A stretch of DNA of 64,000 bases from Mobula hypostoma (Eukaryota). The translations under genes and the position numbers were made by a program. Of this stretch, positions 14,547 through 43,009 are shown piece by piece (the stretch's first letter is position 1; every line of letters starts with the position of its first letter). Below the pieces are notes generated by a model. That model was not told where the DNA came from, searched no databases, and was given only the letters and a program-made list of their open reading frames with translations. Location of the stretch: contig NC_086108.1 in the NCBI RefSeq assembly GCF_963921235.1, positions 35,962,001-36,026,000 on the forward strand, given 5' to 3'.

Positions 14547-14667
14547 AATATAAAAAAATGGAAAAGGTTATATGTGTGAATAAAGTACATGATATTTGTG
14601 AATTCCTTATCCAAATAAAAATAAAATTTTAAAAAAGGAAAAAAAAAAGAAGAAAATGAATAAACAG

Positions 14668-16236
14668 TTGACATTTCGGGCTGAGACCCTTCTTCAGGAC
14701 TAAAACATGGGGAAAATGCCAGAATGAAAAGGTGGGGGGGAGGGGAAAGAGGATAGATAAAAGGTGATAGGTGAAGCCAGGTGGGTTGGAAAGATAAAGG
14801 GCTAGAGAAGAAGGAATCTGATAGGAGAAAGGGAAGGAGGAGGGGACCCAGGAAGAAGTGATAGGCAGATGAGAAGAGATTACAGACCAGAGTGGGAACA
14901 GAAAAAGGGAGGGGGAGTTTTTCTTTATCAGAAGGAGACATCAATGTTCATGACATCAGTTTGGAGGCATTGAGTTGGCGGATTGATGTTTTTCTTTTAT
15001 GGAAACTTGTACGGCGTATAGCTCTGGGGTTGTGCTCCCAATGGTTTATTTTTCTCGTTTTTTTTCTGTTAGTTGGGTTTTTTTTAGTTAGTATGGGTTC
15101 TTTTTCCCAAAAAAATAGATCTAACATTTTATTTTTTCTTCTTATTATTGATAAATTGTTCAGCTTTGTTAATCAGTTATTTGATCATTTAATTCTCATT
15201 GTACATATTGACATGTTGACTTGATTACTTTAATGTATTGTTTTGTTGATCTTCAATAATAATTAATAAAAAAGATTTTAAAATGTAATAAGTTTGGAGG
15301 CTAACCAGACATAATATAAGGTGTTGCTCTTCCACCAAGTGTGGCATCAATGTGGCACAAGAGGGGGCCATGGACCAACATGTGGGAACGGAAATTGGAA
15401 CTAAAATGTTTGGCTGCCAGCAAGTTCCACTTTAGCGAGATCGAGTGGAGTAGATGAAGCAGTCCCCCAATTTACAATGTGTCTCACCAATGTAGAGGAG
15501 GATGCATTGGGAGCACTGGGCACAATAGATGACCCCAGCAGGTTCACAGGTGAAGTGTTGCCTCACATGGATGGACCGTTTGGGGCCCTGAATGGAGGTG
15601 AGGGAGCAGGTGAATGGGCAGGTGTAGCACTTAGGACGCTTGCAAGGGAATCACGGAGGAAATAATCCCTGCAGAAAGCAGAGGGGTGGAAAAGATATGT
15701 TTAGTTTTAGGATCTCTTTGGAGATGGCGGAAGTTGCAGAGGATGATGTGTTGAATGCGGAGGCTCGTGTGGTGGTAGGCAAGAACGAGAAACTATCACA
15801 GTTAAGGCAGCAGGAAGGCAGTGTGAGGGCGTTTGTTCAGGAAATGGAGGAGATGCAGGTGAGGGCTGCATCAATAGTGGAGGAAGGGAAATCCCGTTTT
15901 TGATGGTGGTGGCCATCTCTGATGTCCTGGAAAGGAAAGCCGCATCCTGGGAACAGATGTGGTGGAGACGAAGGAAATGAGAAAAGGGAATAGTATTTTT
16001 AAAGGAGATAGGGTAGGGAGAGGTTTAGTCAAGATAACTGTGGGAATTGGTACATTTATAAAAGATGTTCGTTGAGTTTGTCTCCAGAGATGGAGACAGA
16101 TTGAGAAAGGGGAGGAAGGTGTCAGAAATGGACCGAGTGAATTTAAGGGCAGGGAGGAAGTTAGAGGCAAAGTTGATGAAATTGATGAGCTCAACATGAG
16201 TGCATGAAGCAGCACCAATGCAGCCGTCAATGTAGC
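14668..16236 (-). mobile_element. Degenerate Penelope-like element; its terminus at about 6688-6748 is displaced by the L1 insertion
   Basis: YIDGCIGAASCTHVELINFINFASNF..LKFT RT remnant; pLTR with hammerhead-like core at 14664-14701. Confidence 0.8.
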
Positions 16237-16489
16237 AGATTTTTAAGTACCTTTTTTTTAAGAGGTTACTAAATCTCAGAGAACAACACGAATTTAAAGG
16301 GAGCGCAAGGAAAAGAACAAGATGAGCCAGGAGCTGACCCATTGAGATTGCTAAATAATCAGATAGCAGATCACTGGGGATTGACTGAAAATGAAAAGGA
16401 AATGTTTTATGGATGGACCAACTATGTTCCAATTACTAGAGTAAAGTATGCTGCACACAAAGAAATTAGATTAATTTGGGAATACTTAC

Positions 16490-16615
16490 AGCTGCATCAA
16501 AGCTTTGTGAGAATTCTTTAAATTCCCCAAGAGTCTCTCCCAGTTCTACATCTGGGTGAATACAGTTCAGTAACACACTGATAATAGCCTGAGTTGCACA
16601 GGCATTATTGATAAC
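16490..16615 (-). CDS. UCHL5: UCHL5 exon 4, 126 nt (catalytic Cys)
   Basis: VINNACATQAIISVLLNCIHPDVELGETLGEFKEFSQSFDAA; aag acceptor, gtaagt donor. Confidence 0.96.
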
Positions 16616-18341
16616 CTTGAGAGGGAAAACAAAGAGAAAAGTCATCAAACACAGAGACAGAGAAGATTCCTAACATGTCCTTGCATCAAAATCAATCATA
16701 GAAAAAAACTATGTCCATAAAGACATTAATATTAAATTGCTTCTAATCTTTGAATTAGAAAGACTAGAAAGTAAAACATGTTTATTAGCTCACTTATTTT
16801 TCTAATCAAGGAAATAAATATACAGATTATGTTTTAACTTTTTTTTCTTTTCTAATTCAAAATTCAAAATAAATTAATTACTACAGCATATATACGTCAC
16901 AATACACTATCATGAGATTCATGTTCTTGTGGGCATTCTCAGTAAATACAAAGAAACGTGTGCAGTTTATCTTGATTCTGTCACAACAGTGACTGACAAC
17001 TAACCCATATGCAAAAGACAAATTGTGCAAATGCAAAACTAAAGAAAAATATAATAATAATAAATAACTAAGCAATAAGTATTGAAAACACAAATTGTAG
17101 AGTCCTTAAAAGTGAGTCCATAGATTGTGGATTCAGTTCAGTGTTGGGATGAGTAAAGGTATTTCCTGTTTTAATATCTTCATGGATATCAACCTATTTA
17201 GTTTGCATATTGATTTATTCGCCAAAAGCCCCAATCTTACCTTCTTTATCTAACATTTTTAATTAATCAAGAAAATGCTGGTAACATTCAAGTTAGGCTG
17301 CATCTGTAGAAAATGAAATGGAGTTAACAACTCAAGTCAAAGACCCTTCATCAGCAACTTGTCTTCTTTCCTTTGCAGTTCTGATGGAGGGTCTCTGAAA
17401 TATTTAACCCTCCCTTTCCATAACTGCGGGCTGACCTGTCTTTCCAGCACATTCTGTTTTTAATTCAGATTTACAGCGTCTCCTGCTTTGATCCCTATCA
17501 ACATATCCTTTCATTCCATTCCTCTCCATTGATTTTAAAATCAAGCTTCACCAGAAATATGGTGCTGAGCATCTTAAACACTCCTTGCAGTTAAATTCTG
17601 CAGGTAAGTTTATTTTAATTTATTCACTGTCCAGAGTGCAGATGATACTCAGAAGTGAAAATGTTTTCTCCATGGTGCCACAATCTAATCCTTTCATAAT
17701 ATGAAAACTTCAGCTGGCAAGTACTTCACCACTGCAGATCAAACAAGCCATCTTAAGTCACTAATTCAATAGTCTGATAGTATTTATAATATTTAGTATG
17801 CCTATGTAAACAAATATAGTCTATATTCACGTTCAACACTATTGCAATTTCACTATATGGGAATTCATATTATTTTATACAAGGATTCATAGACTTGTAG
17901 AACACAGATGGCAGGCACCTGCTCCACTGACTCTGCACCATCTCTTTCAAAGAACAATCTAGTTAGTTCCTTTCCCTGCCTCTTCATTGAATAAATTTAT
18001 AGAGATATGGAATCTCCAGGTTACACATTGAAAGCATAGTGCAAATATCAAGCATTAGTTGGCTACAAACCTCTTTCTTCATCTTCCCTGATTCTTTTGT
18101 CAAATCACCTAAATCTGCACTATTTAAGTATGTACCCATTGGTTAATATTGGAAATAGCTTTGAGTTTTGATTTTAAAACTATGACATTCAAAACTTAAA
18201 AACTAAATAAGAAATAAATATAAAAAAAGAGAACATCCTATAGTCTGTTAAAATATCGTTCCATTCTACAGTAATATCTCGATGAGAAGACTTAACTGTT
18301 TTATATTCTAATACAGCAAACAATTTGTATCTAGATATTAA

Positions 18342-18589
18342 GGGGAACGGGGAGGGGAGGGAACATTGACTCAGACCATGAGAGGCCTGCATCGGGCATT
18401 TTCATGCCTTACAATGCGCAGATGGGAAGTCTGTGTGAGACACCACTCCTCACACAGACACTAGAGCAATGTGTGATTAAGTGCCTTGCTCAAGGGCACA
18501 AACACGCTGCCACAGCTGAGGCTCAAACTAGCAACCCTGAGATAACTAGACGAACGCCTTAACCACTTGGCCACGTGCCCAACACAATA
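18342..18589 (-). mobile_element. tRNA-derived SINE
   Basis: A box TGGCCAAGTGG, B-box-like GTTTGAGCC, GTGCCCTTGAGCAAGGCAC core; candidate 10-bp TSD TAGATATTAA (18332-18341, 18590-18599). Confidence 0.75.
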
Positions 18590-20143
18590 TAGATATTAAA
18601 AGCTATAAAAGCTACCCATAAACCTATATATATTAACTGAAAATATCAAAATGGTCTTACTTAGAGAAAAAAAAATCTTGTTCAGGAAAAATTTTTCCAC
18701 TGACAATCATTAAATGAAAATCATTATCTTAACAAAATATTCATATAGTCAGCATTACAGAGGATTCAGAAAAATGATCCATTGATCAGAATACTTTATA
18801 TAATTCTACACTTGATAGCCTGCCACAAATAGTACAGGTCATTGAAGGACAGGCCTCAGAAATGTCAAATTGTTCACGAAAAATGCTGTTGGTAGTTAAT
18901 TAATAACTAGTTGCCTAGCAAATAAAAAATTCAGTGGACTTCCTCCAAACCCATAAGTGACAACCACTGATTGTGTATATATATCCACCAATCTGATATT
19001 TATTTGCACTATCCTTACGAAGAGAAATGAGTAGGCAAAAATTCTATTATTTTCCTGCTTGCAAAAAGAAACTGAACAGTGCATTACGATACTTGTTCAC
19101 TTATGTCTTGTCTTTGCCAATCCTTTGGTATCAATGAAGAAGTTTTTGCTTCACTGTTGCGTGATGCTGAGGTGACCAAAGAGGCCAATACAGGAGTAGG
19201 AGACTCCCACAGAATAGGCAAGTGCTGGGTGGATAGCTTATAAGACAATTAATAAACATCTACACAAGTTTTCAATCACTAAGGCATTGAAGCTACAGAC
19301 CTATTGCGAGTAAATAGGATTAGAAGAGTTTAGTATAGGTGGTGTGAAAATGTGAACCAAAGCTACTATCACTTCAAGATGTAAATGGGACATCTGTGTG
19401 CTTCCAATAAATGTCCTTGACCTTCTCAACATAATCCACTTCAACTAGTTATGGTCCACCGTTTCCAAGAGTTGGAGGGAAGTAGCATTGCTCCAAGGAG
19501 GTTTTGAATCTTTTCCTGTTTACCTGGCACTTCTTTGCATGAGCAAGCTAGGAATTAAGTGTCTCTTAAGGAGTTGGGTGTCAAAACAACCTGGCCTGCC
19601 CAATACAGTTCATTGATATATCTAGGGTCATTATCCTGAGGATGTTGACAGGGAGAAGCACTGACAATGTTGTGCTTTTCTTTCCAGTGAAACTGAAGTA
19701 CTTGGTGGAGCATTATGAGTGTTTTTTTCCCCCAGTACCAGAGATGCCTGCTATCTATGCAAGTCCACACCATAGAGGCATTTTGGAAGGGAAGGATCAC
19801 TAATGCCCAATACATCACAGGTCTTGTACAAGATCAAAGTTCCTGATGTTTAGACAACCTCAAATGATCAATGGCTGTGCTGGGACACTGAAAGATGTGA
19901 TGAATTTCACCACTGTTATCTATTTTCATCAAGAAGAGGCTCCCAAGATATAGGAAGCATCCCCTTTTCAAGCACCTCTTCAAGAACCTTTACTGTTCCC
20001 AAAGATATGGCATCAAGCCAAATCCTGTTCTATTTTACACATATATTCTGTCACCATCCTAAGTTCACTGATAATCTTCTGATCTACTCGTCAAAGGTTA
20101 CAGGGAGAAGGCAAGGGAATGGGGTTGAGAGGGATAATAATTG

Positions 20144-20450
20144 TGGGTGCCACGGTAGCGTAGAGGCTAGTGCAGTGCTATTACAGCTCAGAGCACTGGA
20201 GTTCAGAACTCAATCTCCGCATCCTCTGTAAGGAGTCTCTACATTCTCCCCATGGAATGGGTGGGTTTCCTCCAGGTGCTCCAGTTTCCTCCCTTAGTCC
20301 AAAGATGTACTGATTAGTAGTTTAATTGGTTATTGTAAATTGTCCCATGATTAAGCTAGGGTTAAATCAGGGGTTGCTAGGTGGCATGTTTCAAAGGGTC
20401 AGAAGGGTCTTTTCCATTCTGTATCTCTAAATAAATAAATGAATGAATGA
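20144..20450 (+). mobile_element. HE1-like V-SINE
   Basis: tRNA-like head, V-domain core GGGTTTCCTCCAGGTGCTCCAGTTTCCTCCC..TCCAAAGA, (AAAT/GAAT)n tail. Confidence 0.8.
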
Positions 20451-21300
20451 GTAATGGTATGGCAGAGCAGACTCAATGGACTGAATGATCTAATTCTGCT
20501 CCTGTGTCTTCTCTTCACACTGGCCATCTTTCCTCTCCACTTTCTGTCGTGACTCAAAATATTATTAATTCCTTTCCCCACAGCAAATGTTGTTTGACCT
20601 ATTCAGTTACTCCTGCAGATTATTTATTGTTCCTGTTCTATTTCACTTCCTACTATCCTTTTACTTGTAGACAGATCTTGAGTGAAAGCAATCTCTGTCA
20701 TATTGTTGGCTTTGTCACACTACTTCAGCCCTTTATATCTAGCTATTGTACTTGCTAACAATAGACAAAAATAATTCAGAAGAGCAAAGGTGAAATACAT
20801 CTTGGTAAATATTTTCTATCAATCCGTATTTTGGAAATTAAAGTATGTGATGAAAATTTTGGTGTAATGAATCAGTGAGCGGAGAAAGCAGCAGTTGAGC
20901 TTAGCCTATCCAGTTTTTATTTACAAAGCATGTCCACTTGTCATTAGTCAGTGATACTTGCCATTCTTCTTTACACAAGGCCGATATCATTATTTGTTTA
21001 CCAATTAATAATTCTAGCTAAACTACTCAAGTGCAGTAAAACTCTGATAATCTACTTCTCTAAAATCTCAATGGTTTGGCTCACCTGGTGACATCACCTG
21101 CATTTACTTCAAACTAACCAGAACCCCATTTCCTGCACTTGCTTTAGATTCACTAACTAGGGTTCACTAGGAAACTCATGTAATATTGCATAAGTTTTTT
21201 TAGTGAATTTAACTCGTGTTGGATCACAAAATGCAGAGTGTGCCAAATTATCATAGTTTTACCACGTGTTCCAGAATTAATTGAAACGGCCTTAGTCCAC

Positions 21301-21406
21301 CTGCTTGGCAAAGAAGATCTTCTCAAGTCTAGAATCCTGAACAATGGATCCTGCTGGTTCTTCGCCTGGTTGCCACTTGAATAGGAAGATGAGGCCATGA
21401 ACTGGT
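21301..21406 (-). CDS. UCHL5: UCHL5 exon 3, 106 nt
   Basis: PVHGLIFLFKWQPGEEPAGSIVQDSRLEKIFFAKQ; polypyrimidine+cag acceptor, GT donor. Confidence 0.95.
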
Positions 21407-23072: not shown

Positions 23073-24989
23073 TGCCTCATATACAATGGATGTCAACTCA
23101 CAATAAATTTCATTCTTACATTTACTGAGGTTTCAAATATTGGAAATTTATCATGTTACCATACCAGAAAAATACATAGGCCTGAAATTATGATCCATTA
23201 ACTAAGTAAAATACTAACATGGGAGTTGAGTGATTTAGTTTCAGTTAAATGAATCTCAAATGACAAAAATATGAATAGTAAATTTAAATTATCAGACTGT
23301 TGCAAAACACACAAGAAGCATTTATCAACACAACATCACATGCTTAATTGCTAACTTATTCATCATCCTAAGTAGTCACTCTTTCAACCACCAATATATA
23401 ATGGCTTCAACATGTAGCAGCAAGGAACACTGCAGTTACTCAAGAGTATTGTGAAAGTAGTTCCTAAACCTTTGAACCTTACCACTGAGGAGGTTATGAG
23501 ATTCAGGTCTGGGGACCACTACTACCTCCAGATTCCCCTTAAAATCAAATACCATTGCTCTTTCAGGGTCAGTCAATCGGTTTTAATCCTGGAACTCCTC
23601 ACACAACAGCACTAAGAGTATACCTTCACCAGAAAAAAGCAACTGGTTTGAGGTAGTACCCTTCTCTTAAGCAGTTAGAAATTAATAACAAATACTGAAC
23701 TCGACTGCAGACTTATTCCACAATTTTTTTTAAAAATTGGCTTAGTGATATCCTACAGATCCAAAAGAATGTTCAGGTAACAAACTAATCAATTCGTGTC
23801 AATAACACATCTTTACCCGATCAGCAGTGAGCATCATTTTCCATTTTATACAGTAGCTCATCTTTTAAAATTATAGAATGTTTTGACAACTCATCAAGAC
23901 AGTGTTTTCAAGATCACAATTATTAATTTGGTGGAAAAATTCCTTTTGGAAATCATGTTAAGTAGATGTCCTGTATTTTCTGCTCTTCATAACTGGTAAA
24001 ATTATTTCATCAAAACACTTGACAGTTTCTATCAAATATCTCTTTAATCTTCAAGCTCCAAGAGAAGCAACTCCTGAATCTTTGAATGACACCCAACATG
24101 CTGAGGGAACTCAGCAGATCATGCAACATTTATGAAGAGAAATATACAGTCGAAGTTTCAGGTTGAGTCCCTTCATCAAAATCTCATGTCCCTGATTCCC
24201 TGCGTCTCTTTATCTAATCTCTCTACATACTAAAGACTGTCATCCTTTGAACTACACTAGTAAATCTCTTAACTTTTTTGAGGAACTGACCTAGCACTTA
24301 TTTAAAAAGAAATAGTGCCCAAAATTTCAGACAGTAATTCACGTGGACTAACTTAACATACTATGAAAGCTTTGACCATTTACTTGGATACTCTGCTTCT
24401 ATTTGAAGAAATAATTGTTTTCCTCAATTTACCCTGCCACTTTTGAAGATTCCTAAGCAAACATCCTTTGATCCTTTACAACACAATTAAAAATGCTATA
24501 TCCCCCTTCTTCCTTGTGCATTATCCAGCCACACTACCAGGTTAAGGAGGACCTGCCTAATTTTCCTATCACATTGGTCTGTTTCTTTATAATTCATAAC
24601 TAATCTTTTCAATTTTTACCAAATACCTATCTCCCCTCAATACATCAAATTAATACTTTTTTTCTGCATGAAGCTAAGACCCAAATAAAGACAAATCAAG
24701 TTTATATTCATATGCACAAGTATGATGAGGTACAGGCCTGCAGCAGAATCATAGACATGTATATTCAGGTAACAAATAAACACGAATTATACATAAATTA
24801 TACAAAACAGTGGGGGGAATAGGCTATGCTGAAACAAGACAGAGCAAAAACCCATGAAATAAGTCCATAGCAGTGCTAAAGGTAGTCTGTCATATTCCAT
24901 TGCTGAATGCAGTATTAGAATGCAGATGAACCCAAATGCAGTTTTTAATTTAATGTTGATTTTAAAGTTTATTCCATCCGGTTACTTAC

Positions 24990-25499: not shown

Positions 25500-26280
25500 C
25501 GAACTGATAGAGGAACTCAACGAGTCGAGCAGTTATCCGCAAAGGGAACAGAATTGTCGATGGTTATGCGCCGAGACCCTGCATAAGGGGTCGAAGCGCC
25601 GATCATTCCGACCCCTGATCCCCGAAACGTCTGCTGTTCGACCCGCTAAGTTCCTCGAGCAGATATTAGGCCTTTAACGGTCTGTTTCAAATGTTAGCAA
25701 CGTTTGTGACGAAGAGTGGTCAAATTGCAACCAAAAGATATGTAATAACAAGACTACCCTACTGTTGCTGAACCTAATGCTGTCCTTCGTCCCTTGCTTT
25801 GACAGCTTGCAATTAAGTTGCCCGCCCCGAGCTCCGATATCCAGCGCGCAGGCCCCAAGCGACGGCGTGACTCCCGGCCACCCCCATCCATCCTTCCCAC
25901 TCGAGACATGCGGAGGAACGGTCCCAGCCGTACCGAAGCCTTTGATCAGCTCCGTAAAAACCCCGGGATCGCTCTCCATCAGGCACCATTCGCCGGCGCT
26001 CCCTGCCATCTCTCCAGCGTGCCCGTCCGCGTCCATCCGCGATCCAGGCCTGGAGAAGGACGCAAACTCTTCGAAAGCCGGACAGCCTTCCCAGTAGGCC
26101 GCACAGCTAGGCTCAGCTGCACATGCGCGCCAGATTTCCAGGGCAACCGCCGGGCAGCCGGACTGCAGGGGGTTTGTACCGGGGACCTGAAGCTCGCCAG
26201 CATGGCTTGTCTTAGCAGAGTACTTCTGGCACTCCAGATTAAATCTCCCGTACGCAGTTGTGAGCCACCTAGCAAGAGAA
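25500..26280. promoter_or_regulatory. CpG island / UCHL5 promoter
   Basis: High CpG density against a CpG-poor background, overlapping exon 1. NRF1-like GCACATGCGC near 26119 and an RFX-like ATTTCCAGGGCAAC at 26134-26147. Confidence 0.8.
25934..26009 (-). CDS. UCHL5: UCHL5 (UCH37) coding exon 1, 76 nt
   Basis: Translates MAGSAGEWCLMESDPGVFTELIKGF(G), the N-terminus of UCH37. Start context gagATGG, GT donor (gtacgg) at 25933-25932, inside a CpG-rich island. Confidence 0.96.
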
Positions 26281-28516
26281 AACTCCTTTGATTACCATCA
26301 TTTATTAATTACAAAATCATTGTAAAAGGCAAGAAAGGTTGTTGAACTGAGTAGCATGAGACTTTCAAAATTTCAGTGACGAGAAATGGGCAGTAGTTTT
26401 TGAGGTAGCAACACCACATCAAATTACCCCATGTCAACCTGATAAAGTAAATTCTACGTCAAAAAAACAGCCAAAATGACAAAATAAAACCTTAAAGTTA
26501 AAGATAACCCTATTCACTGCATACTGTTTAAGATAACTTGACTTTGTTAAGATAACAGTTCCGCACTATAGTTTATTTAAATGCCCTCATATCAACTTTG
26601 GAAGGGCAGCTGGAAGTCTAAAAATAATCAGAAAATACTGGATATACTCTTCAGGTCAGGCAGAATAAACCAACTTTACACTTCTGGTCAAAGTCCCTTT
26701 GTCGGAATGGAAATATGAGAAATAATTTAATTTCTAATTACAAGAAAGGTGGGAGAAGAGTGGATATTACAAAGGGAAAATCTATGATAGGATGAGATAA
26801 AGGTTGCAGTGGAGATTATTTTTAAAAAGTTTGATTAATTAGGTAGACAGAAAAAAGGGACAAGCAAAAGTTCTGAAATGCAGATCAAATCTAGAGTAGA
26901 TAGTGAGAAAGAGAATTTCAGAAATGTGAGTTATTTTGTAAAAATTTAGTTCTTATGTGAACATCTACTAGATCATTTAATATCTATGAAGAGCCAAAAA
27001 AAAATTACAAATGGATAACCTCACAACAGAACTAACCAGTTCTGATACAATGAGGGAGACAAGGTTATTTGAAGTTGTTCAATTTGATACTGAATCCTGA
27101 CAGCTGCTATGTGCCTAGACAGAAGATGAGGTGCTGTTCCTGAAGGTCACATTGGATCTTACTGGAACAGTACAGAAGATCACAGATAGATAGATCAGAA
27201 CTGAAGTAGGAAGAAGAATTAAAATGACAGGCAGCCAGAAAGTCAAAATCACCTGTATATTGGATTGACTTTATTTCTTACATCCTAAACATACGTGAGG
27301 AGTAAAAATCTTTACGTTACCTCGCCATCTGAATGTGCAATAGGCAAATTATCGTATTTTGTAATAAATAGTATGTACATTAAGATATGCAACAGAACAG
27401 TCAATAGAGCTTAGAAATACAGTTGTGTCAGCATGAATTAATCAGTCTGATGGCCTGGTGGAAGAAGCTGGCCCGGAGCCTGTTGGTCCTGGCTTTAATG
27501 CTGCAGTACCATTTCCTGGATGATAGCAGCTGAAACAGTTTGTGGTTAGGGTGATTCGGATTCCCAATGGTCCTTCGGGCCCTTTTACGCGCCTGACGCT
27601 GTAAATGTCCTGAATAGTGGGAAGTTCACATCCACAGATGCAGTGGGCTATCCACGCCACTCTTTGCAGAATCCTGTGATTGAGGGAGGTACAGTTCCCA
27701 TACCAGGCAGTGATACAGCCAGTCAGGATGCTCTCAACTGTGGCCCTGTAGAAAGTCATTTTGTGGACTCATGCCAAACTTCTTCAAACTGTCTGAGGTG
27801 AAAGAGGGTTGACGTGAATTTTTCGCCACACAGCCAATATGTACAGATTAAGTGAGGTCCTCAGTAATGTGTAAACCGAGGAACTTGAAACTGTTTACCC
27901 TCTCAATCCCAGATCTGTTGATGTCAATAGAAGTTAGCCTGTCTCCATTCCTCCTGTAGTCCACAATCAGCTCCATTGAGGGAGAGGTTGTTTTCTTGAC
28001 ACTGCTGTGTCAGGGTGATGACTTCTCTGTAGACTGCCTTATTATTAAATGTAGTATCATCTGCAAATTTAATTAGCAGTTTGGATATGTGGGTGCGACA
28101 CAGTCATGGGTGTATAGAGAGTAAAGGAGGGGGATTAGGACACAGACCAGAGGGGCTCCTGTGTTGAGGGTCAGAGAGGCAGAGGTGAGGGAGCCCACTC
28201 TTATCATCCGCCGACAATCTGACAGGAATTTCAGGATCCAGTTACACAAGGGAGGGTGAAGGCTGAGGTCTCTGAGCTTCTTGTCAAGCCTGGAAGGAAT
28301 TATGGTGTTGAATACTGAACTGTAGTCCAAGAACAGCATTCTCACATAAGCATCCCTCCTCTTCAGATGTGTAAGGATGGTGTGTAGAGCTGTGGCTATT
28401 GCATCACCTGTTGATCAGTTGTGTAGGTAGGCAAATTGTAGGGGGTCCAGTGTGGGTGATATCATGCTGCAGATGTAGTCCTTGAACAGCCTCTCAAAAC
28501 ATTTGCCTATTATTGA

Positions 28517-29553
28517 CGCAAACACGAGGAAATCTGCAGATGCTGGAAATTCAAGCAACACACACAAAGTGCTGGTGGAACTGCAGCAGGCCAGACAGCA
28601 TCCGTAGGAAGAGGCATAGTCAACGTTTCGGGCCATGACCCTTCGTCAGGACTAACTGAAAGAAGAGATAGTAAGAGATTTGAAAGTGGGAGGGGGTGGG
28701 GGAGATCGGAAATGATAGGAGAAGACAGGAGGGGGAGGGATAGAGCTAAGAGCTGGAAAGTTGATTGGCAAAAGGGATACGAGGCTGGAGAAGGGAGAGG
28801 ATCATGGGACGGGAGGCCTAGTGAGAAAGAAAGGGGGAGGGGAGCACCAGAGGAAGATGGAGAGCAGGCAGGGAGTTATTGAGAGAGGGACAGAGAGAGA
28901 AAAAAGAGAGAGAGAGAGAAAAAGGAAAAAATAAAAATAATAAATAAAGGTTGGAGGCTACCCAGACGGAATATATGGTGTTTTTCCTCCAACCTGAGTG
29001 TGGTTTCACCTTGACAGTAGAGGAGGCCATGGATAGACATATCAGAATGGGAATGGGACGTGGAATTAAAATGTGCAGACACTGGGAGATCCTGCTTTCT
29101 CTGGCGGACAGAGCGTAGGTGTTCAGCGAAACGGTCTCCCAGTCTGTATCGGTCTCACCCATATATAGAAGGCCACACCAGGAGCACCGGACGCAGCATA
29201 TCACACCAGGCAACTCACAGGTGAAGTGTCGCCTCACCTGGAAGGACTGTCTGGGGCCCTGAATGGTGGTAAGGGAGGAAGTGTAAGGGCATGTGTAGCA
29301 CTTGTTCCGCTTACAAGGATAAGTGCCGGGAGGGAGATCGGTGGGAAGGGATAGGGCGACGAATGGACAAGGATAAGTGCCTCCTGTCTTCTTCTATCAT
29401 CTTGGATCTCGCCCTCCCCCTCCCACTTTCAAATCTCTTACTTTTTCTTCTTTCAGTTAGTCCTGACGAGGGGTCTCAGCCCAAAACGTCGACTGTGCTT
29501 CTTCCTATGGTTGCTGTCTGGCCTGCTGCGTTCCACCAGCAGTTTGTGTGTGT
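28517..29553 (-). mobile_element. Penelope-like insert (GIY-YIG 3' part) with inverted pLTR
   Basis: FTCE..GVI..C.WCGLLYMGET remnant; inverted terminal copies; TSD TGC(C/T)TATTATTGA at 28504-28516 and 29554-29566. Confidence 0.88.
28617..28654 (-). ncRNA. Minimal type I hammerhead ribozyme motif
   Basis: uaguc-CUGACGA-agggucauggccc-GAAAC-GUU-gacua: intact core, 5-bp stem I, GGG/CCC stem II. Confidence 0.75.
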
Positions 29554-29884
29554 TGCTTATTATTGAGGTCAGTGTGACAGGATGCCAGTCATTCCAACAT
29601 GTTACCTTGGTCTTTTTAGGTACAGGGACAATGGTGGATGTTTTGAAGCAGGAGGGCACTCTGCACTGGGAGAGGGAGAGGGAGAGGTTAAAAATGTCTG
29701 TAAGCACACGAGCCAGCTGAGCCGTGCACACCCTGAGTACCCTCCCTGGAATGCCGTCTGGTCCCGCAGCCTTGCGGCTGTTCACTTGGAAACCCTTACG
29801 TACTTCAGCCTCAGAGATAACCAAGGTGCAGGTTGCATCGGGGGCTCCGAGTTGGCGACATCAAACAGAGCGTGAGAAAGAGTT

Positions 29885-30010
29885 CAAATCTCTTACTATC
29901 TCTTCTTTCAGTTAGTCCTGACAAAGGGTCCAGGCCCAAAACGTCAACTGTACCTCTTCCTATAGATGCTGCCTGGCCTGCTTCGTTCACCAGCGTTTTT
30001 TGTGTGTGTT
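29885..30010 (+). mobile_element. Solo Penelope pLTR fragment
   Basis: Same pLTR sequence as neighbouring copies; perfect 13-bp TSD GTGAGAAAGAGTT at 29872-29884 and 30011-30023. Confidence 0.85.
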
Positions 30011-32429
30011 GTGAGAAAGAGTTAGCTCATTTTAGAGAAAGGCAGCATCATTGGCAGTACCGCTGCATTTAGCTTTGAAGACCTTACCATAAGGTGTTGC
30101 TGGTGGAGAGTTGTGTCTGGATCTTGTCCCTGTATTGTCATTTCCCTGCCTTAATGACTTGGCGTAGATTCCAGATGCACTTCTTGAGTTCCTAGTGGTT
30201 ACCAATGGCGCAAGTTCTGTCTTGCACGATGAGTACAGCGCACAAGCAACTGTTGACCCAGGGTTTCTAGTTTGGATAGACCCTGACTGATTTTAGGGGA
30301 CAACGTCCTCGATGCACTTCCAGATGAAGCTCGTGACCTCTTCTGCAAACTCAGAGATATCCTCATCATGAAAGACATTCCAGTTGATGTCATCAAAGCA
30401 GTCCTGCAGCATGGAAACTGATTGGTCAGTGGACGGTTTTAATTATGGCCACCTCTTGTTTCGGCTTCTGCCTGTACACGGGCAGAAGCAGGATGCAGGA
30501 GTGATCAGACTTCCCAAACAGTGGACGGACGGAGGAGTGCTTTGAAAGTATTGCAGAAGAGAGAGTAGCAATGGTCAAGTATACTATCTCCCCTTGTGCT
30601 CACCTGGATGTGTTGACAAAACTTCAGAGAGACTTTAGTCAATGATGCTTGATTAAAGTCTCCAGTGACAATGATGCAGCCTCCAGGTGTACAATCTCCA
30701 AGGTGCAGATGGTCTCATACAATTCCTTGATAGCCAGGTCAATATCAGACTGCTCTGGAATATACACAGATTTGATAATAACAGCCGTGAACTCTCTAGG
30801 CAGCCAGAAAGGTCCACACAGCAGCACAAAGTACTCCAGATACAGGGAACAAAAGGATTTGAAGGCATGCACATTCTGGGGGATGCACCAAGCATATTGA
30901 TCATGAACAGACCTAACCTCCTCTACCCTTCCCAGAGAGCTAAATTGAAGTGTTCCACAAAGCACCCATTTGTTACTGCACTACTCCTGCCCTGTTTTGG
31001 AACTCCAACATTTGTATCCCAATTTTGATGCTCCAGTTTGATTACTCCAGTTTTAACAATCCTATTCTTGGATTTTTTTTTCGCTATACTATTTACGTGC
31101 TCCTTTTTGAGGCTTCTTATTTCAGTCTCCTGTTTGGCTTCTCTTGATTTCAGAACTCCCAATTGCTGTCTGCAGAATCCTTTTTGAGTATTTGACCTTC
31201 TTGTTTGCATATTCCAGATTAGGTTCTGCTGTTTTGAAGCACCCAGTTAGGTCCACATGTTCAGATACTACGATTTTGGTACTCCATTTTGAGATTTCAC
31301 TGCTTTGGCCCTCCTGCCCCAGCGCTCTTGTTTGGTTGCTTCAGCACTTCTGTTTCAGCAGTTTCAACTGGGCATTCGTTTTTCTGCACTCCTCTTTGGA
31401 ACTCCTACTTGGATACTCTTCTTACTATGCTTCTGTTCAGGGATTGTAGCTTTGGCTCTCTAGTTTCAGTTCTCCCATTTGGACATGAGCATTCCTGATT
31501 CTGTGTCCCAATTTGTTAGTACCTAGTTGGTACTCCTCACTCAGCACTCCTTTTTAAGTTCTTCCATTTTGGCATATTTCAATTTCTCCAGTGTAGACCA
31601 AAACACGGATGAAAAACTAAATGCAATGCACCAGCTTGAAAGAAATCCAAGTGAATGGGTGCTTCAAGATTCCTGGATGATGAGAAGTGATAAACCAAGA
31701 GACCAGGTGTTGCAGCTCTTGCGATTGGATTGGAGAGTTATCTGAGAAAAGGATTTGGAAGATAGAAGACCAAAGAATCCACTTGGAATGCTGAGAAGAG
31801 AAGGGAGGTGAAGAATCGTCATAGTGATGGAATCTCAGTGAAGTTAGGGAAAATTCTGAAGAATGATCTATTGAATGCAGAGTTTGATGGGATGGAAAGT
31901 ACTGTCAATCTGAAAAAAAATAGAAAATGGTGAAATTGCTCAGCAATTGAAATAGTATCTGTGAAGAGGGACCTTGCATCAAAACTGGGAAAAATTAGAT
32001 ATGGAACACACTTGAAATTGCAGAGAAGGCAGGACAAGACAGAGAGAACAACAGGGATGTTCGATAATTTTATAGACTCTGAGAGAGTGAATGATACACA
32101 CCAGTAGTAGCAGCAGAAAGGAGGAAAGAAATGTATATCGGAAGGATATGCAAGTTGGAAGGTGCCAACGAAATCTAAAATTCATGAACATAAAAATTGC
32201 TCAGTACTGGAAATGTGGTACATGGCTGACATGTTTGATTATCTGGAACTGTTGCATTCAATATTAAATTTTGAAAGATGTAATGCACCAAGTCAGAATA
32301 GAAGGGTGCTCTACCTCCAGCTTACATTGAATTTTGCTGGAATACGAGACCAGATATAAGCAGGTCTGAGTACTACTGAAATAGACAGTTAAAGTAACAG
32401 CTAACTTAAGCTCAGGATCATTTTTGTAA

Positions 32430-35975: not shown

Positions 35976-36985
35976 GTCCACACTACGCCGGATAATTTTG
36001 AAGACGAAGCTTTTTCTCTTAGTTTTGCCCTCCCGTCCACACCGAGCCGGCGTTTTCAGCCCCCGAAAACCGAGATTTTCGAAAACACTCTCCAGAGTGA
36101 ATAAATCTGAAAACGCTAAATATCCGGCGTAGTGTCTACCGGGTAAACGGAGAGATTTAAAAACGTTGTCATGACAACACCACAACAACAATGCTTTTTT
36201 TTCTGCTTCTGCTTGGTACTGCGCAAGCTGTTATAACGTGCAGTCGGAGTGAACGGCGTAAGAGTTAAACTGTAAAGTGAGCTTTTTTGACTATTTAAAA
36301 ACGCTGTCATGACGTGCCGGAACAGATGTTCGTTGTTTTCTTGAACGCCACCACCTAACAATTTCAGAACAGACGGACTAGACTGAAGCCAGAAGGGTTA
36401 GAAATGTACTCACCAAATACTTTGACCCATAGCTTACTGAATAAATAAGTATAGTCACTTCGCCCTGTTTTCTGTCCTTGGCTGTGCGAAGGTGGTTTAC
36501 CTATTTATGCAAGTACTTCTCTGACAATAGATGTGTAACAGCCCAATGTAACATTGTATGGAAATACAAGATAACACTGATGCAGACGTTTTATACATTT
36601 AACAAGGTGCTTTATTAATGCAACAGAGTTAGTCAGTTTTTCAATGTTCGTCGTCAGCTGGGTCATACTGTCCGTGAACTCGCTGTCGGTTGCCTCCATA
36701 CGCTCCAGTATTTGTTTTTTTTTAAGTTTTAAGTCCTCCTGCGCGAGAGCCAAGAGCAATTCTTTTTAAGTTTTTCTACTCTGTAACTGGACAAACACGC
36801 ACCAAGTATATCGTTTCCTCTTCACTTGTTTTCTGTGTGTGTGTCCTGCGCATGCCCAGTAGGAGGAGATTCGCCCAAATATCCGTTTAATGTGGACGGA
36901 GATGTTTTGAAAAAACACTTAGTGTGAACGCCTGTCGTTTTTACTCGAAACCGGCGTTTTCAAAATTATCCGGCGTAGTGTGGAC
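35976..36985. mobile_element. Non-autonomous TIR DNA transposon, PIF/Harbinger-like
   Basis: Perfect 27-bp inverted repeat GTCCACACTACGCCGGATAATTTTGAA (35976-36002, 36959-36985), subterminal repeats, CpG-rich. Confidence 0.8.
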
Positions 36986-37014
36986 GTATTTTTAACCGAA
37001 GAAATAAAATAAAA

Positions 37015-38290
37015 TAACCCAACAATTACAGCAGGCCTCGAAGCAATGAAGGTCATGAGTTCGAGCCCCAGCCGAGGCAGCGTGTTGTGTCTTTGAGCAG
37101 GGCACTTAATCACACATTGCTCTGCGATGACACTGGTGCCAAGCTGTATGGGTCCTAATGCCCTTCCCTTGGACGATATCAGTGTCGTGGAGAGGGGAGA
37201 CTTGCAGCATGGGCAACTGCTAGTCTTCCATACAACCTTGCCCAGGCCTGTGCCCTGGAGAGTGAAGACTTTCCAGGCGCAGATCCATGGTCTTGCAAGA
37301 TTAACGGATGCCTCGAAGCAATGAAGCAGTATTATGAAAAATGGTCTCTGAACCCAAATCTATCAAAAACTCAAGTGTGTTATTCCACCTGAGTAATCGA
37401 GAAGCAGCTCGGAAACTCAAGATCTTCTGGTGTGGGAAGGAGCACGAACACCATCCGACTCCAATTTACCTGGGCGTGACACTGGATAGGACGTTCTCAT
37501 TTGCCACCCACATCCAAAAACTCCGAGGGAAAGTTGGCCCTCGCAATTCTCTCTTGGAAAAAAAAGGCAGGCACGAAATGGGGAACTAATGCTTACACAC
37601 TTAGATCAACTGCCCTCGCACTCTGCTATGCACCTGCAGAATACTGTACACCTGTGTGGGGCAGATCAGCCCATGCAAAGAAAATAGACCAGTTGCTTAA
37701 CGAAGCCTGCCCAATAATCACGGGCACACTGCGCCCCACACCCCCTAACATCATTTACAGACTCGCAAGCATTGCTCCCCCAGAGATCCGAAGACACATC
37801 ACAACAAAAATTGAAAAAGGTAAACAGAACTCGGATTCACGGAACCCACTACATCATCATGTGCCAATTTCCAACCGCCTAAAATCGAGGAAAAACTTTG
37901 CTACAGTAGAGGAACTACCACACGGAACATCCCCCCCACCCCCAAACATACTAGATTGACCTCTGGCAACAAACGGAAGCCAGAACCCCACCAAACAATA
38001 CAGTGCAAGACCCCACAGAAATGTTAGCAGACGGGGCACTGCTTGACAGACGGAAGTGGTGCACTCTCAACAGAGCGAGAGCAGGAGTTTGTAGGACGGG
38101 AAGTGGTGAAGTGGGGTTTAAAGACCAGCGAATCCTGTGAATGTGGCGAAAGGGTGTAGAACATTGAACACGTTCTGCGCAACTGTCCACTCTCACCTGA
38201 TTTAGCTGACACTGACCTGCTCTGACAACTCTGGAGTGGCTGGCTGTCTGGTGTGGCAAACTGTGACGATGACCCAATGATTTAAATGAC
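37015..38290 (+). mobile_element. Vingi/Ingi-like LINE 3' portion
   Basis: YLGVTLDRTFSF..HI, AGTKWG..AYTLRSTALALCYAPAEYC.PVW, IITGTLRPTP, IAPPEIRR; C-terminal C-x-C-G...H...C remnant. Confidence 0.75.
37052..37309 (+). mobile_element. 5'-truncated tRNA-derived SINE nested in the Vingi-like LINE
   Basis: B box GTTCGAGCC and the same core as the 18.4-kb SINE; perfect 17-bp TSD GCCTCGAAGCAATGAAG (37035-37051, 37310-37326). Confidence 0.85.
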
Positions 38291-38749
38291 TCCGAGCACA
38301 GAGCCATTCCATACTTTGATACAATATCTTCTGGATGTTGAAAATTGTTGATGGCTTCACGTGGATGGACAGCACCTGCTTCTTCCACAATATCACCTGA
38401 AAATAACAATATTGTGGAATAGAGTAGCACCACTCCCCCTTCTTTTTTATCCTGTCCTTACTGTTCTTTACAATCTCCCTTCCTGTTGTGAAAAGCATTA
38501 TATAAGTACTTCCTCGTCCTTTTAAAATACAGCGCCAGGGGAGAAGAAAAAATCATCCATAAACTGTTTGGTTGGGATTGTGATATAAAACCTGAAAGTA
38601 AACTACGGTGGATTGTGGGAATCTAAACCAAAATAATGAAAATTCGTAGTAGGTCAAGTTACATCTATGATAAATAAACATGATTGATTTATTAATGTAA
38701 ATACCAGCAAACTAGAGCGAAACTAAGTGTAGCCCAGCAGCAATGATCT

Positions 38750-39160
38750 TTTCAGCGCTGCAGTACAGGCTGTTTTGGGTCAGGGATGTATTTCCCTTGT
38801 AGCCACGGGTGGCGCTACGGAGCCAGGAGAGTGGAGAAGCCGATTGGCTAGCGATGACATCAGGGGGAGCGGGGAGCCCGGATGTTGCTGTGGTAACGGA
38901 CTGTGGCGGCGGCGGAGATTTTCTTTTCTTTTTTGTGTTTTCGTGTTTACGGGAGGCGGTGTCATCGCTGAGAGCTTGTAACATGGAGGTAACTGCAGTG
39001 TTTGCCTTACGAAGGGGGAGAGTTAACTAGTTTAGTCAGGATTTAGCATCCCCCTTTCCCCGTCCGTGGACACAGGCGTTTACGGTGATGGACGCCTGGG
39101 TGGAGGGAGGCCTACTGCTGGTCGCACATTGCAATTCGCTTCAGACCCACGCTGAATATG
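38750..39160 (+). promoter_or_regulatory. CpG-rich promoter and putative first exon of RO60
   Basis: Non-repetitive CpG-rich patch with an inverted CCAAT (ATTGG, 38843-38847), CRE-like TGACATCA (38855-38862) and RFX X-box GTTGCTGTGGTAAC (38884-38897), followed by ATGGAG|gtaact. Confidence 0.7.
38983..38988 (+). CDS. RO60: Putative RO60 initiator mini-CDS (Met-Glu) at the end of exon 1
   Basis: aacATGGAG has a strong Kozak context and is followed directly by a GT donor in phase 0, matching the phase-0 acceptor at 46540. Confidence 0.65.
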
Positions 39161-39884
39161 TCATCACAGATCTCTGTGCTGCATAATTGCCTGCAACTCC
39201 TCTTAAACTGAGCAGTCCATCATTCACCGCCTTGATTTTAAGTACGTAAATTAGTTTTACTTGATAACAGCAATTTTGGACCATTTACCATTATTTCGCC
39301 TTTGCCGACCGAAACGTATCATTACGTACTTTATCTTAAGTAATGCCTACGAAATTTACGCCCAACAATATTAAGTTCGAAATTACATCATGGATTGGTT
39401 CAAAGATTGTACTAGCACCTTGTAAATTATTATAGTATATTGAGGTTTATGTTTACACTGTTTAGTAAAATGCAGACAACAAGAGAACGTACAGTACAGG
39501 AACATACATACAGCCCTTAATGTTTGTGCCGAACTAACTAAATTACTCATTAAATGCCTAGATAAACCCTTCTACCTACACAATGACCTTGTCCTTCATT
39601 TCTTGTACATCATGCCTACCTAATTTAAACACCCTCTCATATTTGCCTCATCCATCACCTCTGGCAGTGCATTCCAGTCAATCAACATGCTTTTAAAAAA
39701 AACTTGGCCTGCACATCTCCTTTGAACTTAACCTCTCACCTTGAAGGTAGGTCTTCTGGTATTAGATATTTCAACCCTGGGGTAAAATGATGCTGGCTGT
39801 CACTCTATCACAATCTTATAAACCTCTAATCAGATCTCCCTTCAGCCTTCACTTTACTAGAGAAAACAACCTAAGTTTGTCCAA

Positions 39885-40790
39885 GCAACACACATCAAAG
39901 TTGCTGGTGAACGCAGCAGGCCAGGCAGCATCTGTAGGAAGAGGTGCAGTCGACGTTTCAGGCCGAGACCCTTCATCAGGACTAACTGAAGGAAGAGTGA
40001 GTAAGGGATTTGAAAGCCCCAAACAGTCCTTCCAGGTGAGGCAACACTTCACCTGTGAGTCGACTGGGGTGATATACTGCGTCCGGTGCTCCCGATGTGG
40101 CCTTTTATATATTGGCAAGACCCGACGCAGGCTGGGAGACCACTTTGCTGAACATCTACGCTCTGTCTGCCAGAGAAAGCAGGATCTCCCAGTGGCCACA
40201 CATTTTAATTCCACATCCCATTCCCATTCTGACATGTCTATCCACGGCCTCCTCTACTGTAAAGGTGAAGCCACACTCAGGTTGGAGGAACAACACCTTA
40301 TATTCCATCTGGGTAGCCTCCAACCTGATGGCATGAACATCGACTTCTCTAACTTCCGCTAAGGCCCCACCTCCCCCTCGTACCCCATCTGTTACTTATT
40401 TTTATGCACACATTCTTTCTCTCACTCTCCTTTTTCTCCCTCTGTCCCTCTGAATATACCTCTTGCCCATCCTCTGGGTCCCCCCCCGCCTTGTCTTTCT
40501 TCCCGGACCTCCTGTCCCATGATCCTCTCGTATCCCCTTTTGCCTATCACCTGTCCAGCTCTTGGCTCTATCCCTCCCTCTCCTGTCTTCTCCTATCATT
40601 TTGGATCTCCCCCTCCCCCTCTAACTTTCAAATCCCTTACTCACTCTTCCTTCATTTAGTCTTGACGAAGGGTCTTGGCCTGAAACGTCGACTGCACCTC
40701 TTCCTACAGATGCTGCCTGGCCTGCTGCGTTCACCAGCAATTTTGATGTGTGTTGCTTGAATTTCCAGCATCTGCAGAATTCCTGTTGTT
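39885..40790 (+). mobile_element. Penelope-like insert (GIY-YIG domain) with inverted 5' pLTR
   Basis: FTCESTGVIYCVRCSRCGLLYIGKTRRRLGDHFAEH...PDGMNIDF; perfect 13-bp TSD TAAGTTTGTCCAA (39872-39884, 40791-40803). Confidence 0.92.
39947..39984 (-). ncRNA. Minimal type I hammerhead ribozyme motif
   Basis: uaguc-CUGAUGA-agggucucggccu-GAAAC-GUC-gacug: intact core with palindromic ACGU stem III. Confidence 0.8.
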
Positions 40791-40975
40791 TAAGTTTGTC
40801 CAACCTCTCCTAATAGCAGATGCCATCTAAACCAGACAATATCCTGGTAAACAACTTCTGCACCCTCTCCAAAGCCTCAGCATTCTTCTTGTGATGGAGT
40901 GACCAGAAATTAATGCTGTTCTCCAGATGCAGCCTAACTAGGTGTTTTATAAAGCTGCAACAAAATAACTTGAAC

Positions 40976-42918
40976 ACGAGGAAATCTGCAGATGCTGGAA
41001 TTTCAAGCAGCACACATAAAAAATGCTGGTGAACGCAGCAGGCCAGGCAGCACCTATAGGAAGAGGTACAGTCGAAGTTTCGGGCCAAGACCCTTTGTCA
41101 GGACTAACTGAAAGAAGAGATTTGAGAGGGGGAAGGGGAGATCCGAAATGATGGGAGAAGACAAGAGGGGGAGGAATGGAGCTAAGAGCTGCAAAGTTGA
41201 TTGGCAAAAAGGATACGAGGCTGGAGAAGGGAGAAGATCATGGGATGGGAGGCCTAGGGAGAAAGAAAGGGGGAAGGGGAAGCCCAGAGGATGGGCAAGG
41301 AGTATAGTGAGAGGGACAGAGGGAAAAAAAAGAGAGAGAGAGAGAATAAATAAATAACGGATGGGGTACGAGGGGGAGGTGGGGCATTAGCGGAAGTTAG
41401 AGAAGTCGATGTTCATGCCATCAGGTTGGAGGCTACCCAGACGGAATATAAGGCGTTGTTCCTCCAACTTGAGTGTGGCTTCATCTTGACAGTAGAGGAG
41501 CTGTGGATAGACATATCAGAATGGGAATGGGACGCGGAATTAAAATGTGTGGTCACTGGGAGATCCTGCTTTCTCTGGCGGACAGAGCGTAGGTGTTCAG
41601 CGAAATGGTCTCCCAGCCTGCATCAGGTCACGCCAATATATAGAAGGCCACATCGGGAGCACCAGACACTGTATATCACCCCAGCCGACTCACAGGTGAA
41701 GTGTCGCCTCACCTGGAAGGACTATCTGGGGCCCTGAATGGTGGTGAGGGAGGAAGTGTAAGGGCATGTGTAGCACTTGTTCCGCTTAAAAGGATAAGTG
41801 CCGGGAGGTAGATCGGTGAGGAGGGATGGGGGGGATGAATGGACAAGGGAGTTGCGTAGGGAGCGATCCCTGTGGAAAGCAGACAGAGGGGGGAGGGAAA
41901 GATGTGCTTAGTGGTGGGATCCCGTTGGGAGTGACGGAAGTTACGGAGAATTAAATGTTGGACCTGGAGGCTGGTGGGGTGGTAGGTGAGGACAAGGAGA
42001 ACCCTATTCCTAGTGGGATGGCGGGAGGATGGGGTGAGAGCAGATGTGCGTGAAATGGGAGAGATGCATTTGAGAGTAGAGTTGATGGTGGAGGAAGGGA
42101 AGCCCCTTTCTTTAAAAATGGAGGACACCTTCTTCGTCCTGGAATGAAAAGCCTCATCCTGAGAGCAGATGCGGCGGAGATTGAGGAATTGCGAGAAGGG
42201 GATGGCATTTTTGCAAGAGACAGGGTGGGACGAGGAATAGTTCAGGTAGCTGTGAGAGTCAGTAGGCTTATAGTAGACATCAGTAGATAAGCTGTCTCCA
42301 GAGATAGAGACAGAAAGGTCAAGAAAGGGGAGGGAGGTGTCGGAAATGGACCAGGTAAACTTGAGGGCGGGGTGAAAGTTGGACGCAAAGTTAATGAAGT
42401 CAACGAGCTCAGCATGCGTGCAGGAAGCAGCGTCCCTTCCCACCAATCTCCCTCCCGGCACTTATCCTTGTAAGTGGAACAAGTGCTACACATGCCCTTA
42501 CACTTCCTCCCTCACCACCCTTCGTACCCCATCCGTTATTTATTTATTATTATTTTAAATTTTTTTTCTCTCTCTCTCCTTTTTCTCCCTCTGTCCCTCT
42601 CACTATACTCCTTGCCCATCCTCTGGGCTTCCCCCCTCCCCCTTTCTTTCTCCCTCGGCCTCCCGTCACATGATCCTCTCCCTTCTCCAGCCTTGTATCC
42701 CTTTTGCCAATCAACTTCGGAGCTCTTAGCTCCATCCCTCCCCCTCCTGTCTTCTCCTATCATTTCAGATCTCCCCCTCCCCTCCCACTTTCAAATCTTT
42801 TACTATCTCTTATTTTAGTTAGTCCTGATGAAGGGTTTCGGTCCGAAACGTCAACTGTACCTCTTCCTATAGATGCTGCCTGGCCTGCTCATTCACCAGC
42901 ATTTTTTGTGTGTGTTGC
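40976..42918 (-). mobile_element. Penelope-like element (RT C-terminal part + GIY-YIG) with inverted distal segment
   Basis: FHPALKFTWSISDTSLPFLDL, TDVYYKPTDSHSYL; orientation flips near 42432; 16-bp TSD ACAAA(A/G)TAACTTGAAC (40960-40975, 42919-42934). Confidence 0.92.
42820..42857 (+). ncRNA. Minimal type I hammerhead ribozyme motif, sense to RO60
   Basis: uaguc-CUGAUGA-aggguuucggucc-GAAAC-GUC-aacug: core intact, one mismatch in stem I. Confidence 0.65.
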
Positions 42919-43009
42919 ACAAAGTAACTTGAACTCAGTTCTTTGACAAATGACTTTACTACCCTATCAATCTCTTCTCCCTGAAAGTGGACTTGAACCT
43001 GAAGATCCC

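Follow-up and report, generated by a model that had tools for sequence, protein, structure and literature searches.

A 64,000-nt segment of the genome of the ray Mobula hypostoma (contig NC_086108.1, positions 35,962,001 to 36,026,000; hereafter the window) carries eight copies of a 38-nt sequence motif in the neighbourhood of the genes UCHL5 and RO60. These very probably represent minimal hammerhead ribozymes (min-HHRs) in the pseudo-long terminal repeats (pLTRs) of 5'-truncated Penelope-like insertions, of a kind that likely cuts as dimers in the active element and that likely survives here as inert relics whose decay falls mainly on CpG sites. Each of the eight copies was found at the position and on the strand given in a preliminary description made from the letters of the sequence alone. 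Copy E is older, and the other seven are young:

14665-14702, minus strand: min-HHR motif of copy E
28617-28654, minus strand: min-HHR motif of copy A
29458-29495, plus strand: min-HHR motif of copy A'
29913-29950, plus strand: min-HHR motif of copy S
39947-39984, minus strand: min-HHR motif of copy B'
40657-40694, plus strand: min-HHR motif of copy B
41069-41106, minus strand: min-HHR motif of copy C
42820-42857, plus strand: min-HHR motif of copy D

From 5' to 3', the motif consists of a 5-nt strand of helix I, CUGANGA, one extra nucleotide, helix II (4 bp with a 4-nt loop), GAAA, CG, UH and the partner strand of helix I. This is the order of a minimal type I hammerhead in which helix III is the palindrome ACGU, without a loop III. 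The family majority has the core CUGANGA ... GAAA ... UH. The extra nucleotide between A9 and 10.1 is present in all eight copies, the ACGU palindrome (15.2-16.2) in six, and the G10.1-C11.1 pair also in six, with G-U in B and B' instead. Helix cells (helix I of 4-5 bp, helix II of 4 bp) are paired in 86% of cases, versus 17-51% when the helices are slid. Core, helix layout and element remnants all agree with the class named in the preliminary description, a minimal type I hammerhead with palindromic helix III in Penelope-like pLTRs.

The core changes listed in that description were correct, except that GAAAT at 14664 (copy E) alters position 15.2 of helix III and not a core base; therefore, four of the eight copies keep all 11 core bases. 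In E, the change of 15.2 from C to U breaks the ACGU palindrome, and 1.1 is mismatched. The catalytic core is indeed kept at 28617 (A), 39947 (B') and 42820 (D), but none of the three is flawless: the cut site of A is GUU (C17U at a CpG), B' has G10.1-U11.1, and D has a 1.1 mismatch and a helix II weakened by G-U at 10.3-11.3. A' has G12A and an intact cut-site half, S has G8A, G12A and a 1.1 mismatch, and C has G8A and a G-to-U change at 16.2. B combines C3U with G10.1-U11.1; its cut-site half (GUC and the 3' strand of helix I) is intact, with a predicted cut after 40689. C3U, G8A, G12A and a GUU site lower hammerhead activity. For C3U, the available text of PMC7151607 and PMC3088659 gave no measured effect (statements on published systems refer, here and below, to the available text of the sources cited).

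A hidden Markov model (HMM) built from the seven young copies, which match it by construction, scored those same copies at 110-128 bits (nhmmer). The copy at 14664, which was not among the training copies, scored 32 bits, and the best score in 20 shuffled windows was 12.7 bits. The extra matches include 3'-only scraps at 6686 and 43579. The scan with a hammerhead model or descriptor that the preliminary description had proposed gave a divided result: hammerhead models were absent from the 20 Rfam matches in the window at E≤1, while a strict structural descriptor was passed by two copies (28617 and 39947) and had 0 matches in each of 20 shuffles.

Covariation among 11 copies in the window is not above that in shuffles (398 of 500 shuffles were as high), because the copies are too few and too alike. 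A looser core pattern, derived from the ray motif, yielded 106 distinct motifs from 125 loci in public contigs (124 metagenomic and one viral). Among these unrelated motifs, 35 of the 106 form a helix I of 4 bp or more (shuffled mean 4.1, maximum 11), in which every one of the four Watson-Crick pair types occurs, and 77 have a helix II lengthened by 2 bp or more (shuffled mean 16.7). The covariation of stems I and II that the preliminary description expected across copies does not rise above the shuffled level within the window and is present among unrelated motifs with the same core. Besides the result within the window, two features of the public set tell against the identification: a Penelope protein match lies within about 400 bp at only 16 of the 125 loci, and the pattern was derived from the ray motif, so that covariation among the 106 motifs supports a structure class, not activity. 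None of the 125 loci is similar to the ray pLTR (blastn, E≤1e-3), and the exact family motif has 0 matches in metagenome contigs. The contig from the viral collection, 35.5 kb long, carries the same minimal core pattern (L125:401-428).

A tract with branch point, polypyrimidines and AG (28655-28682 on the minus strand, and equivalents) ends 1 nt before helix I in six of the seven young copies; the exception is the sense copy B, where AG is changed to AT. The tract may serve as the splice acceptor of an intron in the element's own pLTR and as a cryptic acceptor in host introns. In addition, one reading frame passes through the motif. Both features would fit a motif that is no ribozyme in this family and merely a pLTR sequence conserved as promoter, splice acceptor or coding start, as would the lack of a match to the Rfam hammerhead models and of covariation within the window. 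Such a role by itself is very unlikely, however, given that the hammerhead core is matched exactly with the helices correctly placed, that the descriptor finds nothing in 20 shuffles, and that the helices covary in unrelated carriers of the same core; moreover, other Penelope hammerheads overlap an intron end and the start of an open reading frame (ORF) (PMC4209133, PMC11167929).

The min-HHR identification also accords with the carrier. Upstream of the motifs lie remnants of the C-terminal part of a reverse transcriptase (RT), a CX4CxxC linker and a GIY-CxxC-YIG endonuclease (EN). The linker is present in arms A and C. Arm B has a GIY-YIG Pfam match (frame 40018-40359; E 0.001, below the gathering score), and its homologs show 95% identity; arm C matches the RT-EN proteins P0003 and P0012 with E of 1e-137 and 2e-70 (tblastn). 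The top five nearest proteins are 76-95% identical and come from Mobula and Hypanus. In B and C, the motif is situated about 290-300 nt downstream of the end of the GIY-YIG frame. A CX2-5CxxC linker marks Neptune or Nematis (PMC8557442), and by its linker the carrier is probably a Neptune- or Nematis-type Penelope-like element. No full-length copy is present in the window. The seven young copies make up four insertions (A/A', solo S, B'/B and C/D), all bounded by target-site duplications (TSDs); E, about 70% identical to the young family (blastn), is listed last:

28517-29372, minus strand: A, long arm of insertion 1, with zinc linker, GIY-YIG remnant and tailed pLTR, ending 105 nt after the cut site; intergenic
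29380-29557, plus strand: A', inverted tail-less arm of insertion 1 (67 nt); 9-bp TSD at 28508-28516 and 29558-29566
29883-30010, plus strand: S, solo insertion of a 128-nt pLTR without a tail (65 nt); 11-bp TSD at 29872-29882 and 30011-30021
39885-40016, minus strand: B', the inverted counterpart of B in insertion 3, without a tail (67 nt); antisense in RO60 intron 1
40016-40790, plus strand: B, long arm of insertion 3, with GIY-YIG frame and tailed pLTR (101 nt); sense in RO60 intron 1; 13-bp TSD of B'/B at 39872-39884 and 40791-40803
40976-42431, minus strand: C, long arm of insertion 4, with RT C-terminal part, linker, GIY-YIG and tailed pLTR (98 nt); antisense in RO60 intron 1
42433-42919, plus strand: D, the inverted counterpart of C in insertion 4, with an internal deletion and no tail (67 nt); sense in RO60 intron 1; 15-bp TSD of C/D, with one mismatch, at 40961-40975 and 42920-42934
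14664-16234, minus strand: E, older 5'-truncated Penelope-like copy with RT thumb and endonuclease remnants (tblastn with P0003/P0012) and pLTR; sense in UCHL5 intron 4

Three of the four insertions are inverted pairs, in which one arm carries the tail and the other lacks it. Their ends fall into two classes, 98-105 nt after the cut site in the long arms (three of seven) and 65-67 nt in the inverted arms and the solo copy (four of seven), with one of each class in all three inverted insertions. A one-sided tail of 30-40 bp together with an inverted 5'-truncated copy is a described architecture (PMC8557442, PMC3846280), and reverse transcription of the Anolis element starts at two sites that bound the tail (PMC11167929). 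The two end classes may correspond to two reverse-transcription start sites of the ray element, one used at each insertion end; the split would then mirror in the genome, on a small scale, the two start sites that were measured in vitro with the Anolis element. Insertion A/A' splits an RT frame of a long interspersed nuclear element (LINE), which continues across the TSD. The copies are not read as a tandem retrozyme, since none of six tandem-repeat rows within 14000-48000 contains the motif. Penelope RT/endonuclease sequence is also found inside ray proteins annotated as isoforms of host genes (kinase-domain, mucin-2 and neuromedin-U receptor; P0003, P0005 and P0011), which reflects either exonisation or gene-model error.

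The orientation of the copies relative to the two host genes follows from these exons:

26036-25932, 25054-24989, 21405-21300, 16615-16490, 5000-4939 and 4858-4724 (all approximate), minus strand: UCHL5 coding exons 1-6 (tblastn with P0018/P0015)
near 879, minus strand: UCHL5 exon 7 (tblastn)
38750-38988, plus strand: putative RO60 promoter and exon 1, CpG-rich (observed/expected 0.83), ending in ATG GAG before GT; 5' end not mapped
46540-47157, plus strand: RO60 exon 2 (TROVE domain), its 3' end being the end of the tblastn match

The sequence at 38983-38988 is the sole ATG-GAR donor before GT on the plus strand from 25.5 to 46.5 kb (in a scan that covered all of this interval except one 100-nt stretch), and splicing at 38988 gives a 12-residue start identical to that of Hypanus RO60 (N-terminus of P0133). 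RO60 exon 1 therefore probably lies at 38750-38988, although other first exons may exist further upstream; upstream peptides of three other RO60 isoforms could not be placed in the window. A location of RO60 exon 1 in the UCHL5 CpG island near 26.2 kb, by which four plus-strand copies would be sense, was dropped once the donor at 38988 was found. With this donor, RO60 intron 1 contains four of the copies, two in sense orientation (B and D) and two in antisense (B' and C); A, A' and S fall between the genes. The preliminary placement of 40657 and 42820 in RO60 intron 1 and of 14664 in UCHL5 intron 4, all sense, agrees with the mapped exons and the putative exon 1 donor, and the gene structure suggests that the sense copies are transcribed within host pre-mRNA. 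The UCHL5 start (26036, minus strand) and the RO60 start (about 38750, plus strand) appear to be about 12.7 kb apart, in separate CpG islands. In mammals, UCHL5 and RO60 lie head to head at a short distance. The intron that separates UCHL5 exons 5 and 6 (4939-4858) measures only about 80 nt and stands among introns 3.5-11.5 kb long.

Decay of the young copies is concentrated at CpG sites. Relative to the family majority, 17 of 70 CpG positions are changed (15 by changes of the deamination type) versus 7 of 196 other sites (P=2e-6), a count in which loop-II position L3 was set to C on a 3:3 tie; without this choice, the excess is 12 of 56 versus 12 of 210 (P=0.0009). The strands do not differ, with 16 of 152 positions changed on the plus strand and 8 of 114 on the minus strand (P=0.39). 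Of the 38 positions of the motif, 30 were treated as critical, leaving out 2.5, N7, the extra nucleotide, four loop positions and 1.5. All seven young copies, in any orientation, carry at least one change at a critical site, and such changes amount to 4/60 in sense, 3/60 in antisense and 5/90 in intergenic copies. The measured decay rate gives a chance of 0.06 for a flawless copy, and 0 of 4-5 flawless is expected with a probability of 0.73-0.77. It is therefore true, as the preliminary description noted, that no sense copy is flawless, but this is not particular to sense copies. Its suggestion of selection against intronic cleavage is not borne out, since flawless copies are missing in every context and neutral decay accounts for this.

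Purifying selection that removed or disabled intact sense intronic ribozymes, which would otherwise cut host pre-mRNA, is accordingly an unlikely cause of the pattern. The strict descriptor is passed by none of three sense copies and by two of the five others, and Xenopus introns under-represent retrozyme-related sequences (bioRxiv 10.64898/2026.07.22.740005, in the available results of which orientation is not analysed). Tests of the descriptor counts, however, give P=0.40-0.46 (0/3 sense versus 1/2 antisense, P=0.40), flawless copies are absent everywhere, as neutral decay predicts with a probability of about 0.75, and an inverted insertion contributes one sense copy in either orientation. 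Furthermore, the helix II change of B is common to its antisense twin B' and therefore likely predates insertion. Two points count against neutral decay alone. Critical changes outside CpG number just two (C3U in B and 11.3 in D), and both fall in the two young sense copies, which has a chance of (2/7)^2, about 0.08, calculated post hoc; and the sample is tiny (two young sense, two antisense and three intergenic copies), so that mild selection may be at work. Host selection on the ribozyme is not needed to explain the pattern, and the window cannot show selection. Decay at a neutral CpG pattern argues against domesticated intronic hammerheads.

Whether copies that are singly defective could still cut RO60 pre-mRNA depends on how dimers are built. 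The double-hammerhead model used here comes from a figure legend in PMC4209133, with a strand assignment proposed in the present analysis. A tandem transcript of the active element would likely be cut by a strand-swapped hammerhead dimer, each active site of which would take its catalytic half from one copy and GUC with the helix I 3' strand from the other. Dimer-type hammerheads should thus be scored by halves; the preliminary description overlooked such half-wise judging, and also the antisense partners of the sense copies in RO60 intron 1. B at 40657 lies 2163 nt upstream of D at 42820 in the same intron. The catalytic half of D and the cut-site half of B are intact, and so a complete site can be drawn from the two though neither copy is flawless. 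This composite retains the 11 core bases in full, together with a helix I of 5 bp and a 4-bp ACGU/ACGU helix III. That the two halves, both sense in one intron, complement each other and cut RO60 pre-mRNA at 40689 at a low rate is nevertheless extremely unlikely. The composite double hammerhead has a predicted energy of -5.2 kcal/mol, versus -54 to -70 kcal/mol for each 38-mer (B or D) paired with an antisense copy, and D alone is predicted to prefer a hairpin misfold that buries GAAAC (-7.7 versus -0.1 kcal/mol). Published dimers are slow or protein-dependent: min-HHRs have no monomer activity and low dimer activity (PMC4209133), the hammerhead of the Anolis element PAc needs the element's protein, with no RNA ends seen at its cut site in the available text (PMC11167929), and eight of nine Xenopus dimer constructs were without cleavage.

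Each inverted insertion places a sense and an antisense copy in one intron; therefore, the RO60 sense copies would pair with antisense arms and could not fold as ribozymes. Whole-arm duplexes of 133-256 bp have predicted energies of -251 to -469 kcal/mol. In the minimum-free-energy structure of the plus strand, antisense copies pair with 37 of the 38 nt in B and with 36 of the 38 in D, and the predicted probability of helix II of B is about 1e-21 in two partial transcripts. B and D are thus predicted to be locked in duplexes with antisense arms of the same intron. The masking argument is weakened on two sides: the folding predictions ignore proteins, splicing kinetics and adenosine-to-inosine (A-to-I) editing, and the argument leaves out the sense copy at 14664, which has no young inverted partner and whose inactivity rests on its own defects. 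In that copy the palindrome and pair 1.1 are lost, and its same-strand neighbours are decayed. There is only the slightest chance that RO60 pre-mRNA holds a latent split ribozyme, restrained by inverted-repeat duplexes and freed by editing, unwinding or the element's protein. If it did, counting flawless monomers in a repeat-rich ray genome would misjudge the number of introns that can be cut. Between 39885 and 42919, the two inverted insertions stand 170 nt apart, and by prediction their four arms would give RO60 intron 1 long stretches of double-stranded RNA, a possible substrate for A-to-I editing.

The window also contains decayed relatives of the pLTR. The traces reported near 17340 and 24150 in the preliminary description were recovered with the HMM (the latter at 37 bits), and that near 26690 was not, being only weakly aligned:

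17272-17354, minus strand, and 17363-17455, plus strand: decayed inverted pair of pLTR ends in UCHL5 intron 3 (nhmmer, 17.5 and 15.3 bits)
24089-24179, minus strand: decayed pLTR end with hammerhead remnant (C3U, G to U at 16.2) in UCHL5 intron 2 (nhmmer, 36.6 bits)
26640-27244, minus strand: very old Penelope remnant, with an endonuclease C-terminus at 27068-27244 (tblastn, E 6e-8) and a weak hammerhead trace near 26690

The trace near 26690 is plausible because it lies about 380 nt downstream of the same-strand endonuclease remnant. Weak inverted pLTR-like traces at 25547-25661, beside the UCHL5 CpG island in intron 1, score 5.6 and 2.7 bits (nhmmer), within the range of shuffles. Other elements include long LINE-1-like ORFs of 339, 892 and 401 aa at 6851-12017 (plus strand), antisense in UCHL5 intron 4, and a Tc1-like transposase remnant at 54518-56242 between long inverted repeats that are 94-98% complementary, both labelled by eye. 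Two copies of a 1.2-kb element with internal inverted repeats (49932-51126 and 59410-60596) are 87-94% alike and 9.5 kb apart. A short match to the 5' end of large-subunit rRNA is located at 52520-52590 (plus strand; 55 bits, above the gathering score).

The element class, its architecture and the dimer model are already in print, and the ray copies are an added example of a described class. No paper on the ray family or on sense/antisense depletion was found in a literature search that did not extend to subscription papers or Repbase, and the supplements of PMC4209133 and bioRxiv 10.64898/2026.07.22.740005 may list chondrichthyan motifs. Since inverted Penelope insertions place a ribozyme and its antisense mask in one intron, solo and inverted insertions must be kept apart in any test of orientation bias.

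The closest parallels are the metazoan Penelope min-HHRs (Cervera and De la Pena 2014, PMC4209133), which share with the ray motif the type I topology, the conserved core, the extra nucleotide after A9, G10.1-C11.1, a helix I of 4-5 bp, the palindromic 15.2-16.2 and the lack of a loop III, and which likewise occur mostly as dispersed truncated copies with opposite-strand motif pairs 100-700 bp apart. In contrast to the helix II of 7-8 bp in Schistosoma min-HHRs (PMC4209133), that of the ray has 4 bp. The hosts given in the available text of PMC4209133 are fishes, coelacanth, Xenopus and reptiles, cartilaginous fishes not being named there, whereas the present host is a ray. The order of RT, linker and GIY-YIG, the 5' truncation, the inverted truncated copy, the one-sided tail and the TSDs are those of Neptune and Nematis EN+ elements (Craig et al. 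2021, PMC8557442; Arkhipova et al. 2013, PMC3846280), although the window has no full-length copy. PAc, a Poseidon element of Anolis carolinensis (Frangieh et al. 2024, PMC11167929), is similar in its hammerhead at the pLTR end, its AT-rich targets and its two discrete 3' ends a tail-length apart, and differs from the ray family in its clade, in an ORF start within helix II and in the protein-assisted cleavage shown for it. Vertebrate non-LTR retrozymes (bioRxiv 10.64898/2026.07.22.740005) also have pLTR-derived type I hammerheads and are present in the one chondrichthyan sampled, but form tandem arrays, whereas the ray copies are solo or inverted and carry ORF remnants. Lastly, the amniote intronic hammerheads (RECK and others, PMC6155905) resemble the ray copies in being type I and sense in an intron; those are conserved at orthologous sites, whereas the ray copies are young, mutated and TSD-flanked, with a minimal helix III.

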